The position numbers and the translations under genes were made by a program. 64,000 nucleotides of DNA from Okamejei kenojei (Eukaryota): contig CM069174.1 of NCBI GenBank assembly GCA_035221665.1, positions 8,122,001-8,186,000 of the forward strand, in the 5' to 3' direction. The notes under the pieces were generated by a model, which searched no databases, was not told the origin of the DNA, and was given only the letters and a program-made list of their open reading frames with translations. Below are positions 44,816 through 54,777 of the stretch, in pieces (within the stretch, counting starts at the first letter, position 1; every line of letters begins with the position of its first letter).

Positions 44816-45498
44816 GTAAGGTTTGATGATGAGAGATTATTTTTATCTAAGGTTGACTTAGTCCAGTATCTTCCTTTGTTACCTTGATTCAACAATATTT
44901 TTTGCTCAGTAGTTGCTGTATGTAATATTGTAAATGCATGAACAGGTATGTGAAAGTCGTTGGCTCCATCTATCTTCCCATCCAATTCATCGCCACCTTT
45001 GTGATGAGACAACCATACATGCTTAAAGGCATGTTTGGTTGCTATTGCTTTGCCTATGTATTTTTGAAGCACTTCAGTATTCTTTCCATGTATGGAACAG
45101 GCATATATTGAAAAATGTACTTCACACCTTTGTGAAATCAATTTTGTCTTGAGTTCCATTTTTTATTCTCTGAAGCAGTAAATCCCTGCTTAAAGTTCCA
45201 CAGAAGCAGGTACATATCTTCAACCTGTCGTCTTAACATAAACATTTCCCTAATTAGAAAAAAAATGCCCGCGTTTTGTGGAATGAGCTCTGTCAATGCT
45301 GAAAGTAAACTTTGAATTATTATATTTACATCCTAGAAGTATGTCAATTTGGTTGGAAAATGAATTGCTCCCATTGAACTTAGTATTAAATTATAGGTTG
45401 TGCTGATTAAGTGGGTTATTATAAAATTATCCGGATTTAAAAAAAAAAATTTCAACGAAGGTATAATTAATTTTGTTTTTCTAAAAATTGTGTTTCAG

Positions 45499-48400
45499 GT
45501 CCGCAAACAGCAAAAGGAACATACAAATCTTATGACAGAATATCGGAATAAACAGCAGCAGAAATGCTCCTTATCTCCCTCAGGGGTGATAGGGACAGCC
45601 GCATCCCAGAATCCTCGCGTAATGCCTAAACTTGCAACACCCATGTTATCGGCAGCACTAGCCCAGCAAGGAGGATCAATCCTTGGACCCCAAGCATTAT
45701 CGCAACAACCAAATACACTAATAGGACACACGGGAAATATACGACTGCCACTTCAACAAGGACCAACTTTCTTAACCTCAGCTGTGACCCAACAGCAAGA
45801 ATATTCTTCTGCCTCAGCAACTGTCTCTTCTGCCGCTCCAACTAGCTTTTTTCCTGGAAATTCTGCTGCTCAGACGCTTGCGAATGAAAACAGACTCATG
45901 CAAGAGAGACACCTTCAGCTGCAAAGAATGCAGCTTGTTCAACAGCAAGGCCTAGTTGGGCCAACTCAGCAACAAAGCATCATGGGGAAATTACAACAAC
46001 AAAATGTCATTGGACAGCTTCAACCGACGACTCAGCAAAATATTGTCGGGAACAAACCAATATTGACGCAGCAGGCTCTCATGGGCCAACAGCAACAAGG
46101 CTTCATTGGCCAACAGCAGGGGATTATTGTACAGTCACAACACCAGCCAGGTCAGCAGCAACTGCCCCAGCCGCACATCGGTCAGGGGCAGCAGCAACCA
46201 GGGGCACCGCACCAACAGAGTCTAGCACCTCAACAGCAACACCTACGGTTGATGAGTCAACAGCATATGTCTCCAATTGGTCAGCAGCAAGGCCTCCTCC
46301 TACATCAGCAATCCCATCAACAGGGACTTGCCAATCAACCTAAACCTCCAAGGCCTCAGCAAGGTCTTATGGCACAGCAGTTGGCACATCAGCAAGGTCT
46401 TGCGGGTCAACAGCAAGTCCTTGCTTCTCAACAACAGCAACAGAATCTAGTTTTACAGCAACAGACATCCAATGCTGTTTTGCAACAGCAAGGACTCATA
46501 GGAACTCAACAAGTGAATGTTTCTCAGAGTCAACAGCTGGCAACAATGAGTCCATTGCAACAACATCACCTTCAAGCAGTGTCAGGACAGCTTCACCCAC
46601 AAAGTGTTATCAGGCAGAACAACATCCTTCGGCTGTCCACCCCTTTGCAAGGCCAGCAGCAAAATACAATGGTCCATCATGCCCGAATGCAGGGTATAAT
46701 GAGGCAGCAATCGCAAGATGTTTTGGGACAACACTTAGCATCACAAGGTATAATTGGACAGCAGACTCCATTGCACGTCCTCAGGCACCAGCTGCCAGGT
46801 ATGATGGGACAGGGGCAGCAGCAGCAGCAGCATCAATCCCAAGGCATGGTCACACAGAACATAAGGCAGCAGCATCAGCCGCTCGTATCAATGGAACAAG
46901 GACTGCAATCCCAGCCTCAGGGTGCAATGACCCAGGGTCAGCATCATCAGACCCAGAGCGCAATTGGACAGGGACAGGAGCATCTGCCCCTCACTGCAGT
47001 GGGAATGGGCCAGCAGGCACAGCCACAACCACCACCCTCCGAGCCCCATGTAACAATGGGGCAGGGAATGGGACAGCAACCTCCCCCACCCCAGAACATG
47101 ATTGGGCAACAACAACTGCCACCATCCCAATCCCATGGGACTATAGGTCAGCAAACACCATCCCAACCACAGGGTCCAATCGGGCAGGGAATGGGACAAC
47201 CGCTGCAGTGCCAGGCCACCGTGAGACAACAGCCGCCGACCCAGGGCATCGGCGGGCAACAGCCCCAGACTCTGCGCATGGGCACTGTGGGACAACAGCC
47301 CCAACCACTGGGTGCTGGCGGGCAACAGCACCAGACCCAGGCCACCACGGGACAACACCCCCAGCCACTGGGTGCTGGTGGGCAACAGGCCCAGGGCATG
47401 GTGGGACAACAGTCCCCAACCCAGGGCACGGTGGGACAACAAGCCCAGACCCAGGGCACATCGGGTCAACAGGCGCAGGGTACCGCAGGACAACAGGCCC
47501 TGACCCAGGGCACAGTAGCACAACTGGCCCTGGCCCAGGAAACGGCAGTTCAACGTGCCCAAGGTACCGCAGGTCAACAGGCCCAGACCCAGGGCACCGT
47601 GGGTCAACAGGCCCAAGGCACAGTAGGACAAGGGCCCACGACCCAGGGCATGGCTGGACAACAGCACCAAACCCAGGGCACTGCGGGACAACAGGCTCAG
47701 ACCCAGGACATGGCTGAACATCAGGCTCAGGACACAGCCGAACAACAGGCCCAGACCCAGGGTGCTGCAGGACAACAGACCCAGGGCAGAGCAGTTCAAC
47801 AACCCCAGACCCAGGGCACTGAGGCTCCACAACCCCAGTCTCGAGGCACAGCGGGTCAACAGCCCCAGTCCATGGGCACCAGCGGACTACAGCCCCAGTC
47901 CCAAGGCACTGCGACTCAACCACACCAGATCCTGGGTCCCGGCAAACAACAGCCCCAAACCCTAGGCCCCCGCATACAACAGCCCCAGTCCATGGGCACC
48001 ATGACTCAACAGCACGAGACCCAAGGCACCGACGGACAACAGCCCCAGTCACTGGGCACCGTGACTCAACAGCCCCCTACCCAAACCACTGACGGAGAGC
48101 ACACATCATCGCAGGGCACCGGCGAACAAGAGTCCCCGTCCCTGGCTACTGACGAACAACAGCCCCCGTCACTGGACACGGCGACTCAACAGCCACCGAC
48201 CCAAGGCAACAATGGAGAACACTCCTCATCGCAGGGCACCGACGGACAACGGCCCCCATCGCGGGGCACCGACAGGCAGCAGCCACCATCTCAGGGCACC
48301 GGACAACACCCCCAAACCCTGGGCACCGATGGACAACACCCCCAGACCCAGGGCACCAGTGGACAACACCCCCAGATCCAGGGCACCAGTGGACAACACC

Positions 48401-51024
48401 CCCAGACCCAGGGCACCAGTGGACAACAGCCCCAGATACAAGGACAACAGTCCCCATCCATGGGCACCGGCAGACAACAGCCTTTGGACAACGACAGACA
48501 GCAGCCCACATCACAGGGCAGCAGTGGCCAACAGGGTCAGGGCTCTGATGGACAACAGCACCTGTCCCAGGGCACTGTGGGCCAATGGCCGCAGATCACT
48601 GACGGACAACAGCCCCAGACTCCGGGCACTGACGGACAACACCCCCAGTCCCAGGGTGCCATGATACAACATCCCCAGTTCCAGGGCACCGGGGGTCAGC
48701 ATCCCCAGAGCCCCACAGTACAACATTCCCAGTCCCTGGGTGCCATGGTACCCCAGTCCCTGGGCATGGGTGGACAACATCCTCAGTCCCTGGGCGCCAT
48801 GGTACAACATCCCCAGTCCCTGGGCACTGGTGGACAACATTCCCAGTCCCTGGGTACCGGTGGACAACATCCCCAGACCCAGGGAGCCATGGTACAACAT
48901 ACCCAGTCCCTGGGGCCTATGGTACAACATTCCCAGGCACACAGTGCCATGGTACAACATCTCCAGACCCACGGCCCCATGGTACCGCATCCCCAGACCC
49001 TGGGCGCCACTGGACAACAGCCTCATCAGGGCCCTTTAGGGCACGGAGTAGTACAGCAGCAGTCATCCCAGGGAGCTGTGGGAATGGGTCAGCAGCCTCA
49101 GGGGCTCGGTCTGGCAGGAGTTGGACAACAGCAAACGCTATCTCCTGGTATAATTGGCGTGGCACAACAGCAGCTCCAAATTCAGAGTACAATGGGAATA
49201 TCACAACAGCAACCCCATGGCACCATTGGGATGGGACAATCTCAATCTCAAGCTCCAATGGGGCAGGCAAAGCAACAGCAGCAGCCCCAATGTTTGATTG
49301 GGATAAGGCATGGGCAACAGCAGCAACTACTCCATGGCCTGATGGGACAATGGCAATTGCAGACACAAGGTGTAGCCAGGCAAGGACAACTACAGAACCT
49401 GTCTGGTCAAGAACAGCTCTCCCAGACTATGGTGAACCAAGAGCAAGGACAGCAGCAACTGCGTTCACAGAGCATATTTGGGCAAAGTCAAGGACAGCTG
49501 CAACTGCAGAGCTTTATGGCACAGAGGCAGTCTCCGGGTACAATGGGGCAAGGACAGCGATTTCAGAGTTTAGGTACAATTGGTGGAGAACAGCAAGAGC
49601 AACAACAAGAGCAGCCGCCTCCAGGTACACTGAGTCAGGGACTGCAACGAGCCCAAATTGCAATGGAGCAAGATTCATTGCTGCCTCCCCAGTGTGTAAT
49701 GGGACAGGACCGTAACCAGCCACAGATTCAGAACGTGCCTAAGAACGCAGTAGGGCTGGGACAGTCTCCGGGTATGATGTATCAGAATCTACAAACACGA
49801 TCAGTGATATCAGTGCAACAAGCAATGCAGCAAGGTGTCGCAGGGCAGCAGAGATCAATTGCTCATCAAAATCAATTAATGAGACGTGTACACCCATCTG
49901 TTACAAATCTCCAACAGAATAATGGTCTCGGTTTGCAAGGAGTTGTGCGTGTAGCGACATCTCAGCAGCATGGAACAGTGGGAGATCCAAGGCAGGGAAT
50001 GCAAAGCATCATGACTTCACAGTCGTTTCAACAGCAGCATCCAGGCCTACGTCCAGTTCAAGTGACCAGTCAACAGATGGGTTTGGGTCTTCGTCCAGGC
50101 ATGGTTTATGTGCAGCAAATTAAAGCTGAACATGGAGGGAAACCTCAAGAGATGGCCCATCTAATTCAAAACAAACAAGCAAGGCAGAACACAGGGTCAA
50201 CAAATGAATTGGTATCTGCCCAAGCTCATTGCAATCGTTCTCAAATCCTCCATCCTGAGGTAAATAAAAACAATTCGGGAGATGTGTCACTACAAAATGA
50301 AACTTTGGACGCAATAGTACAGTCACAATCAGAAGTACTCAAAAGCCACGAATCTGAAGAAAGTACTCATTGTATGGCGAACCCTATTGGGATAATACAT
50401 CAGAAGATATTGGATTCTAAATCTGATGCATCGGCAATGAAGCCACATGGCACTGGTGAAAAAGCAAATTCTGTCACTGAGTCACAAACTAGAATTAATA
50501 TGGAGACGCATGAGCAAAGCGAGTTGACTAAAGCTTGCACATTCGACTTCCCAGTATCCCCCCAAAGTCAAGTCACAAAGGAGGAATACCCTGGACTGCG
50601 AGCAGAATCATCACTGTTGAATCAAACGAATGGGCAAGAGGAATGTGTACACAAAGTCGTGGGAAGACAGGATAGCTGTTCCAACTTACAGGATGGTACT
50701 GTTAAAGGTCCCAATGCAACAAGTGCAGGTCACTTAGTGAAACAGGAAAACATTGAGGCAATTCGCTGTGGGTATTCTGAGGGAACCTTAAAACATGAGT
50801 TAAATACTGACTCCTTCAATGCCTTGAATGTAGGGGACCAGTCTTTCCTTGCCCCCAGATCTGAAGCTGGACAGCTGCTTCTGCAGAAACTGTTGCGCAC
50901 TAAGAACTTGCAGCTTGTGGCACAGCGCTCTGGTGATGGAACACACTTAGCTATAAAAGGACACATTGAAAGCAAAGCCGTGATGATAGATCGGAAACTT
51001 CAAGGTGCAACTGGAAATCCAGAG
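45499..51024 (+). CDS. KMT2D: KMT2D giant Q-rich exon (5526 nt, 1842 codons)
   Basis: Starts VRKQQKEHTNLM and ends PRSEAGQLLLQKLLR...KLQGATGNPE; tttcag acceptor, GAG|gttagt donor; uninterrupted ORF 45400-51054. Confidence 0.96.
47100..49020 (+). repeat. Coding minisatellite, ~30-nt unit (decapeptide GQ[Q/H]PQ[T/S][Q/L]G[T/A]x)
   Basis: For example, 48301-48420 holds four near-identical units ggacaacacccccagacccagggcaccagt. Confidence 0.93.
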
Positions 51025-51589
51025 GTTAGTTTACAATTATGTCAGCAAAGTTGAAAATCGAGAAAAGTACAGGTACTGGAAATCTAAAATAAAAAAGTAA
51101 ATGCAGGGAATATTCAGCAAGTCAGGTTGCATCTATAGGAAGAGAAACGTAGAGTTAATGTTTTGGGTCACGACCTATTGTCAGAATTCAGGAGAGTGTA
51201 CTCTGTGTTTCTTCTCCCACGGATGGGGCCTGACCTGTTGAGTATTTTCAGCGATTCCTTTATTAAAAAATCTTGTATGTCAACAAGGGATGTGGGCCAA
51301 ACACTAGCAGACGGGATAAGCTTAGATTGGCGCCTTTTTCGGCATGGACGAGTTGGGCTGAAAGGCTTGTTTCCGTACAGCATAACCCTGACTATCTTAA
51401 AAAGCTTCAATAACAATATAAAGAGATGGAGCAAAAATAAATAGTCCCATAGAAATAACAACTGCCAAAATTAATGTGGGAGATTAAAAAAAATCCCAAA
51501 TATTTGTTTCTTGTTTTGGCTTGTCGTCTTGGCAGAAAGCATGTTTCTACAATACTAGTGGTAAAAATGGAACGGGTAAAGGCTCCAAT

Positions 51590-53890: not shown

Positions 53891-54055
53891 CAACTGTCCC
53901 TTCTCCCTTTGATGGAACCTACCGTTGAGGTTAATTTTGGCCTCTTTCCTCCATTTGGGAGCCGTCCCTTCAATAACAAGAACCAACTGAAAGGATCATT
54001 TGGGAATGCAGTGCTGGATAGTGTTCCAGATTACTACTCGCAGCTTCTCTACAAG
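53891..54055 (+). CDS. KMT2D: KMT2D coding exon (QLSLLPLMEP...PDYYSQLLYK)
   Basis: ccccag acceptor, AAG|gtaaat donor, strong homology. Confidence 0.96.
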
Positions 54056-54067
54056 GTAAATGTGACT

Positions 54068-54203
54068 TCTTCTTGCGTATGGCATGCACAGCCTAAAGTT
54101 GTCGGACAACTTGTTCTATTTGATCTTATTTGATTGTGCACGGCGGGTTGATTGCATTAGTCGAAACAGGGCGGACCACGTGAAGGTTGCAATCTCCCAC
54201 CCC
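54068..54203 (-). mobile_element. 136-bp (GAA)-tailed retroposon with HDV-like ribozyme head (element A)
   Basis: Perfect 12-bp TSD gtaaatgtgact at 54056-54067 and 54204-54215; minus-strand tail ccatacgcaagaaga. Confidence 0.9.
54150..54203 (-). ncRNA. Minimal HDV/CPEB3-like self-cleaving ribozyme (54 nt, predicted)
   Basis: GGGGUGG-GA-GAUUGCA-ACC-UUCACGU-GGU-CCGCCCU-GU-UUCGA-C-UAA-UGCAAUC: P1 7 bp with G1-U wobble, P2 7 bp perfect, P3 3 bp, canonical L3 and J4/2. Confidence 0.85.
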
Positions 54204-54523
54204 GTAAATGTGACTGAAATTACACTTATGGTTGCATTTAGCATAATTTGCTGAGATAAGTTAAGTAAAAGATCTAGCTTACCCTACAGAATAATGCGAT
54301 TCAATCATTCAGCTTGGAAATGGGCCCTTTGGCCCAGCCTTTGGTGCTGTGTGTGTGGAGTTTGCTCATTCTCTCTGTGACCACATTCACTGAATGCTTC
54401 AGTTTCCTCCCACAATCCTAAAGTTGTGTTGGTAGGTTAATTGGTTAGAATAAATTGCCCTTTAGTGCATCTATATGGTACTAAAATGATGAAAGAATAA
54501 TCAATTTGGCAGTGAATAATAAA

Positions 54524-54777
54524 CAGTGGTGCAGCGGTAGTTGCTGCCTCACTGCGCCAGAGACCCGGGTTCGATCCTGACTACGGGTGCTGTCTACCTG
54601 TGTTTGCGCGGGTTTCCTCCCACACTCCAAAGACGTGCGGGTTTGTAGGTTAATTAGCTTCAATAAAAATTGTGAATTGTCCCTAGTGTGTAGGATAGTG
54701 CTAATGTACGGGGTTAATTGCTGGTCCATGTGGGCTCGGTGGGCCAAAGATACTGTTTCCACACTTTAAAGTCTAAA
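54524..54777 (+). mobile_element. HE1-like V-SINE
   Basis: A box, B box gggttcgatcc, V-domain; further copies at ~34900-35170 (+), ~56637-56832 (-) and ~61080-61286 (-). Confidence 0.8.

Follow-up and report, generated by a model that had tools for sequence, protein, structure and literature searches.

A very small retroposon family derived from a Vingi-like LINE and headed by a predicted P4-less HDV-type ribozyme in Okamejei kenojei

The stretch of DNA analysed here (the window) comprises 64,000 nucleotides of Okamejei kenojei, positions 8,122,001 to 8,186,000 of contig CM069174.1 in assembly GCA_035221665.1. A retroposon of 136 bases lies on its minus strand at 54203–54068 (G1 = 54203), antisense to a KMT2D/KMT2C-like gene and 12 bp into the intron that follows the exon at 53891–54055. 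The features of the locus are the following.

53891–54055, plus strand: host exon of 165 nt of the KMT2D/KMT2C-like gene, an open frame; gene identity is taken from a downstream exon, and contigs of runs X1 and X2 (presumed RNA) exit the window at 54055
54056–54067, unstranded: target-site duplication (TSD), tail side, a perfect 12-mer that starts with the GT of the host intron
54068–54074, minus strand: (AAG)n tail, differing in length between copies
54075–54102, minus strand: nt 102–129, ORF end and 3′ UTR of the parent LINE, matched by the 3′ ends of family-E loci; likely the reverse transcriptase recognition site
54103–54126, minus strand: nt 78–101, junction of about 24 nt, absent from the aligned LINE ends, with a 7-bp hairpin
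54127–54203, minus strand: nt 1–77, 5′ end of the parent Vingi-like LINE family E, 94.8% identical to locus L477 from G1 and also found at L476 and L480
54150–54203, minus strand: P4-less HDV-type ribozyme fold of 54 nt with 17/17 pairs, covariation with LINE heads and a weak Rfam HDV-type match; cleavage is predicted 5′ of G1
54157–54160, minus strand: J4/2 with the candidate catalytic C44 (54160), a C in 4/4 other Vingi-like heads and in 83% of 77 copies
54178–54184, minus strand: L3 loop, U20 to G25, with C22–G37 as a one-pair P1.1; its sequence is that of L3 in the Rfam CPEB3 consensus (numbering after an excerpt of PMC4836649)
54204–54215, unstranded: TSD, G1 side, the same perfect 12-mer, which repeats the 5′ splice-donor sequence of the host

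The first-pass annotation of this DNA had placed G1 directly against a perfect 12-bp duplication and a GAA-type tail at the other end, and both are borne out by the features above. As the duplicated 12-mer is the 5′ splice donor of the host exon, the insertion left the gene with another donor sequence, 148 nt downstream of the first, the use of which would put the antisense element into the KMT2D/C-like mRNA. Elsewhere in the window, a 1,885-codon open frame rich in Q, G and P with internal repeats (45397–51054) is likely a giant exon of the KMT2D-like gene, and copies of a tRNA-type SINE, one with a perfect B box, flank the element at 54527–54760 and 54342–54440.

The head of the element folds in the nested double-pseudoknot order P1, P2, P3. 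P1 (54203–54197 with 54174–54168) consists of 7 bp including a G1–U36 pair, P2 (54194–54188 with 54156–54150) of 7 bp and P3 (ACC with GGU) of 3 bp; the 7-nt L3, UUCACGU, is followed by G37–U38, a 5-nt linker devoid of a stem and a 4-nt junction beginning at C44. This is the arrangement read by the first-pass annotation, whose pairs, G1–U wobble, CPEB3-like L3, GU and C44 position were all recovered. The linker (UUCGA), which it had regarded as a vestigial P4, forms no stem, so that the ribozyme is P4-less, and the UAA described after the candidate catalytic C is present in the window copy but not typical of the family, where GAA is the majority and UAA a variant in 19 of 77 copies. The HDV-like descriptor items given in an excerpt of PMC6326823, namely G1–Y, the L3 bases U20, C24 and G25, and C as the first base of J4/2, are all present; that descriptor asks for a two-pair P1.1, for which the element has one C–G pair and a U–U as in CPEB3, and for CRRA in J4/2, for which the window copy has CUAA and the family majority CGAA. 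A search with a strict descriptor, a check that had been proposed, returned this site alone on both strands of the window, one match in 300 dinucleotide-shuffled windows and none when the 60-nt head was shuffled 20,000 times, figures that are indicative since the descriptor was drawn up after the fold was seen.

Rfam models, proposed as a further check, gave no gathering-level match to the element: a scan of 52–56 kb held no relevant match, the CPEB3 model RF00622 did not match, and a 111-nt scan placed HDV-F-prausnitzii on exactly 54150–54203 at 16 bits against a cut-off of 44 (E 0.41). The nested minimum-energy fold of the element retains P2 and pairs nt 3–8 with 57–62, a helix that rivals P1 and is stronger in the window copy than in the copy L318 (−21.1 vs −16.7 kcal/mol); the folding z-score of the whole element is −0.55.

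The element is a member of a dispersed family. A first look at genome G000 yielded 1,063 candidates, the best 40 at 96–100% identity, and the 3′ 23-mer of the element has 3,429 exact matches in the genome against 0 for the reversed control, a count that includes some LINE ends (L456 being one) and misses diverged copies; the family thus has at least about 3,400 copies. Among the first 90 consecutive matches on contig 1, which were picked by their 3′ end only and of which two pairs look like duplicated segments, 63 start at nt 1, 9 at nt 2, 6 at nt 3–5 and 12 are truncated. With 72 of these 90 unselected copies starting at nt 1–2, the copy-number and shared-5′-end survey that had been suggested supports a very small non-autonomous retroposon family whose 5′ end is G1 of an HDV-type fold, the core of which is CPEB3-like. 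Exact TSDs of 8–15 bp (mode 12) were found in 50 of the 77 copies with a recognisable head; in 21 of them the duplication ends exactly at G1, in 35 no more than 1 nt away from it. Loose read ends pile at 54203 in all four sequencing runs, taken from 24 and representing four organisms (263, 46, 32 and 454 ends). Decay is evident at the level of single copies: the common variants G8A, nt 42 and nt 45 fall at unpaired places, G32A turns U–G into U–A and keeps the pair, and C44 decays like other CpG cytosines. A variant 77–78% identical to the element with another middle, possibly a second subfamily, is seen at L238:3279-3407 and L239:3290-3408.

The identity of the LINE that copies the element was pursued through its two ends. 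One family carrying DUF6451, which we take to be of RTE type, has an (AAG)n tail, a similar age and an HDV-like head of its own that is 17/19 identical to the element at nt 10–28, which could point to an element mobilised by an RTE, or to an RTE-head/Vingi-tail hybrid like the R2/R1 SIDEs. Yet an RT-domain search gave 30 loci, none similar to the element. In 30 loci of this one RTE family the 3′ end bears no resemblance to the element, and the RTE head falls to 20/39 identity overall, starts with C and has P1.1 flipped. Both ends of the element are matched by family E instead (see below), by which an RTE origin, and with it the RTE-like copier named in the first-pass annotation, is largely refuted and has become very improbable. 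The length of the TSD was dropped as a test of the partner, for it is 11–12 bp in 2 RTE copies and does not separate Vingi from RTE. The RTE heads are of interest in themselves: at L412, L435 and L438, and in 12 of the 30 loci altogether, the 5′ end carries an HDV-like head in which the P1 strand starts with C and is rich in pyrimidines, the G–C of P1.1 is flipped and the P4 region is about 95 nt long.

A LINE insertion inside one of the 30 RTE-type loci disclosed four further families, A–D, which are 3.1–3.3 kb long and encode EN and RT with no RNase H, as read on family B. In the register of the element their heads hold 17/17 pairs in 6/6 cases, with 6–7 pairs changed on both sides and 0 broken, and unlike the element they have real P4 stems. 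P1 and P3 are 98.3% paired vs 47–58% in slid controls, although the rows are hand-picked and related and the figure is not a probability; P2 pairs were parsed by script, its 3′ strand being unalignable with MAFFT. In full-length A and B copies the TSD abuts G1 in 9 of the 10 for which a tail was found, and the heads of families B and D reach 31.6–32.6 bits in the Rfam HDV-type scan. A lack of stem conservation across copies had been named beforehand as evidence that would count against a ribozyme; the pairs are kept by these double changes, though all pairs and core bases are intact in only 15 of the 77 headed element copies. As judged by comparative sequence analysis, compensatory change has conserved the fold across five LINE families.

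Families A–D were rejected as the direct parent, as element nt 55–122 match them no better than shuffles do. Family B shares just the last 7 nt and the tail and is much younger (0.6% divergence), and a parent with a longer P4 was likewise discarded, since none of 30 examined among 78 matches had an endonuclease frame. Family B (L171–L183, L201–L208) is itself very young, with 98.9% pairwise identity and a ribozyme head with a two-pair P1.1.

Family E supplies both ends of the element. L477 matches nt 1–77 from G1 and then runs on into LINE sequence with the endonuclease frame, so that the same P4-less head is present on an autonomous LINE family. At the other end, 23 of 30 family-E loci match the 3′ end of the element at their own 3′ end with 81–97% identity, and one more over a longer stretch at 74%; the match covers element nt 95/102–136 and is 35/35 between L318 and L456. 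The near-full copy L476 holds both ends within 3,096 bp and is collinear with the 1,019-aa EN and RT protein P0109 (Pfam EN and RT only) at 52–72%; as family-E copies are frameshifted, their single ORF is read from this collinearity. Half the pairwise divergence is 6.3% for family E and 6.5% for the element. Going by these alignments, a 3.1-kb Vingi-like LINE gave rise to the element by internal deletion. The element is made of nt 1–77 of E, a junction of about 24 nt and the last 35 nt or so of E, with the 5′ end and the 3′ end of one and the same LINE joined and independent insertions bearing TSDs and variable tails, as is found in bipartite LINE derivatives. The junction may have arisen from a short tandem duplication and an inverted, hairpin-forming copy of a LINE 3′ piece. 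At L219/L184, L467/L494 and L488 there are 5′-inverted LINE copies with a reversed ribozyme head, as well as element copies in inverted orientation lying within the 3′ end of a family-E LINE. Family E is presumably of the Vingi clade, a label drawn from its architecture and motifs rather than from comparison with a labelled Vingi or Ingi reference protein. It fits the definition excerpted from PMC13708176, that is, a compact single ORF with APE and RT and no RNase H.

That the element is an ordinary Pol III SINE with a merely ribozyme-like head is hardly conceivable. A B-box-like word does occur at nt 38 with 2 mismatches, but the best A box has 3, so that the earlier view of an element lacking a good Pol III promoter stands, and the nearby tRNA-type SINE has a perfect B box by comparison; moreover the head is a LINE 5′ end, and the chance rate of the descriptor is low.

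To the observed structure, family, TSDs, variable tail, 5′ ends at G1 and family-E ancestry of both ends, a mechanism can be added that we consider quite probable, wherein the minimal HDV-type ribozyme head cuts before G1 and the LINE protein copies the resulting RNA into new sites. A sense copy would be transcribed within a longer RNA, by read-through or from a promoter of its own; its head would fold and undergo Mg2+-dependent cleavage 5′ of G1, with C44 as the presumed general acid by analogy with HDV C75 and CPEB3 C57 (PMC4836649, in part). The family-E protein would bind the 3′ end of the element RNA, and target-primed reverse transcription into the nicked target would leave the TSD of about 12 bp. 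Since this copy is antisense to the host gene, the gene transcript cannot be its source; self-cleavage, and the use of host transcripts in place of a promoter as first envisaged, are unproven.

Several features speak against use of the ribozyme: the one-pair P1.1, the absence of P4, J4/2 as CUAA not CRRA, and the rival helix of nt 3–8 with 57–62. A fixed 5′ end, moreover, is expected of any short retroposon, cleaving or not. The origin could be the same and a Pol II promoter inside nt 1–77 define the 5′ end, like Pr77 of L1Tc and NARTc, whose first 77 nt are described as internal promoter plus ribozyme in the available text of PMC3383444, the shrunken ribozyme being slow or dispensable. The lack of G1 ends in RNA-seq favours this, along with the missing P4, the thin P1.1 and the rival helix: in the poly(A) run X24 (6% read) there was no place with many molecule ends, and reads cross G1 on both strands. 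This null is weak, because short RNAs are lost from libraries of this type and the majority of copies are no longer intact. Against a promoter-set end, the fold and catalytic C are kept through the 6–7 double changes across LINE families, the autonomous LINE itself bears the P4-less head, and P4-less HDV-like ribozymes are active according to excerpts of PMC10879173 and PMC6326823; promoter and ribozyme functions are also not mutually exclusive. We regard the promoter explanation as unlikely and retain ribozyme cleavage as the preferred reading. Depth in X24 is 109–202 for sense vs 231–309 for antisense (strand from the library convention and two host-exon reads), and at L318:1389-1524 the sense RNA depth drops two- to three-fold just after the ribozyme and the antisense depth does not.

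The head of the element is, by sequence comparison, a cousin of the CPEB3 ribozyme, while a near-copy of that ribozyme is borne by a sister family, F. RF00622 scored 30 of 59 loci in G000 above its cut-off, with a best score of 66.8 bits, and loci in 0/14 control genomes; from G1, L497 is identical to the consensus at 44/46 positions and L496 at 38/41, counted by eye. Among the 20 loci fetched, 3 share the start of a downstream frame, and similarity among the remaining 17 is limited to about 100 nt; L501 continues into EN/RT like the Vingi-like protein set (E 5e-52), and no TSD or tail was found at the 20. These loci (L496–L515, e.g. G000:C14:40547617-40547690 and C19:41379732-41379810) comprise at least three repeat subfamilies with heads over the cut-off. 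With the CPEB3 ribozyme (RF00622; excerpts of PMC4836649, PMC8233481 and PMC10919898) the element shares a 7-bp P1 from G1, a 3-bp P3, the same L3, a P1.1 of G–C plus U–U and, in the family majority, the CGAA junction; it differs in its stem sequences, in the lack of P4, in not being matched by RF00622 and in its KMT2D/C-like host gene, the CPEB3 ribozyme being located in intron 2 of Cpeb3.

Because the head of the sister element is a near-copy, the mammalian CPEB3 ribozyme likely came from such an element; the likeness, compared over the ribozyme only, and the locus that runs into a Vingi-like ORF suggest a retroposon origin. That ribozyme is older than the marsupial–placental split according to the part of PMC8233481 at hand, in which neither "origin" nor "retrotranspos" appears. 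No donor is named where the available text of PMC7761336 and PMC10919898 treats conserved vertebrate ribozymes and those of retrotransposons. A fossil Vingi, X12_LINE, is present in the human genome (PMC5753468, excerpt). We find it reasonably likely that CPEB3-type HDV ribozymes occur clade-wide at the 5′ ends of Vingi-like LINEs, that the element is the smallest ribozyme-headed retroposon in the surveyed literature, and that the mammalian CPEB3 ribozyme is a domesticated 5′ end of this sort, inserted before the marsupial–placental split.

The closest known systems were compared from excerpts of the papers cited. NARTc (263 nt) and RIME, of the sister clade L1Tc/ingi, are likewise non-autonomous and join a LINE 5′ end with an HDV-like ribozyme at +1 to a LINE 3′ end (PMC3383444, PMC4035085), and NARTc also has its first 77 nt in common with its LINE (PMC3383444). 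The element differs from NARTc in being about half the size, in its vertebrate host, thousands of copies, absent P4 and (AAG)n in place of poly(A), and in a ribozyme activity that is only predicted. R2 SIDEs and R2/R1 hybrid SIDEs similarly retain a ribozyme and a 3′ end after internal deletion and are mobilised in trans, but they are rare and rDNA-specific with large ribozymes shown to cleave (PMC3414825), whereas the present family has thousands of dispersed copies. Vingi LINEs and the internally deleted Vingi-1_EE derivatives have a compact single-ORF APE and RT without RNase H and bipartite derivatives (PMC5786205, PMC13708176). Minimal HDV-like or theta ribozymes also lack P4, though about 99% lie in phages beside tRNAs (PMC10879173), unlike the heads described here, on a vertebrate LINE and its derivative.

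In the part of PMC5786205 available, bipartite non-autonomous LINEs are on record for RTE, Ingi, Vingi and R2, and six clades, Vingi not among them, are listed as having ribozymes. Activity has been shown for the ribozyme-headed NARTc and SIDERs (PMC4035085) and R2 SIDEs (PMC3414825), HDV-like ribozymes have been noted in some SINEs (PMC6765202), and active P4-less ribozymes are nearly confined to phages (PMC10879173, PMC6326823), again as excerpted. The literature search found no Vingi ribozyme, no description of this family, no Vingi origin of the CPEB3 ribozyme and no P4-less ribozyme heading an element of the NARTc or R2 SIDE kind; Ruminski 2011, Kojima 2011, Repbase, Dfam, patents and supplements (e.g. 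of PMC5786205) lay outside its scope. A bipartite ribozyme-headed derivative is therefore of a known kind, and what is new is a SIDE of very small size that descends from a Vingi-like LINE and whose HDV-type head lacks P4.

Overall, the family presents a natural retrotransposition unit of about 130 nt, a predicted ribozyme plus a 3′ end of about 35 nt, which would point to the minimal cis-signals for Vingi, a clade now used for RNA-based gene insertion (PMC13708176, excerpt). It would also place an HDV-type ribozyme without P4, a form so far associated with phages, at thousands of sites in a vertebrate genome, many of them transcribed inside host RNAs. The head of the sister family, with its 44/46 identity at one locus, together with the human Vingi fossil allows ideas on where the memory-linked CPEB3 ribozyme came from to be tested.
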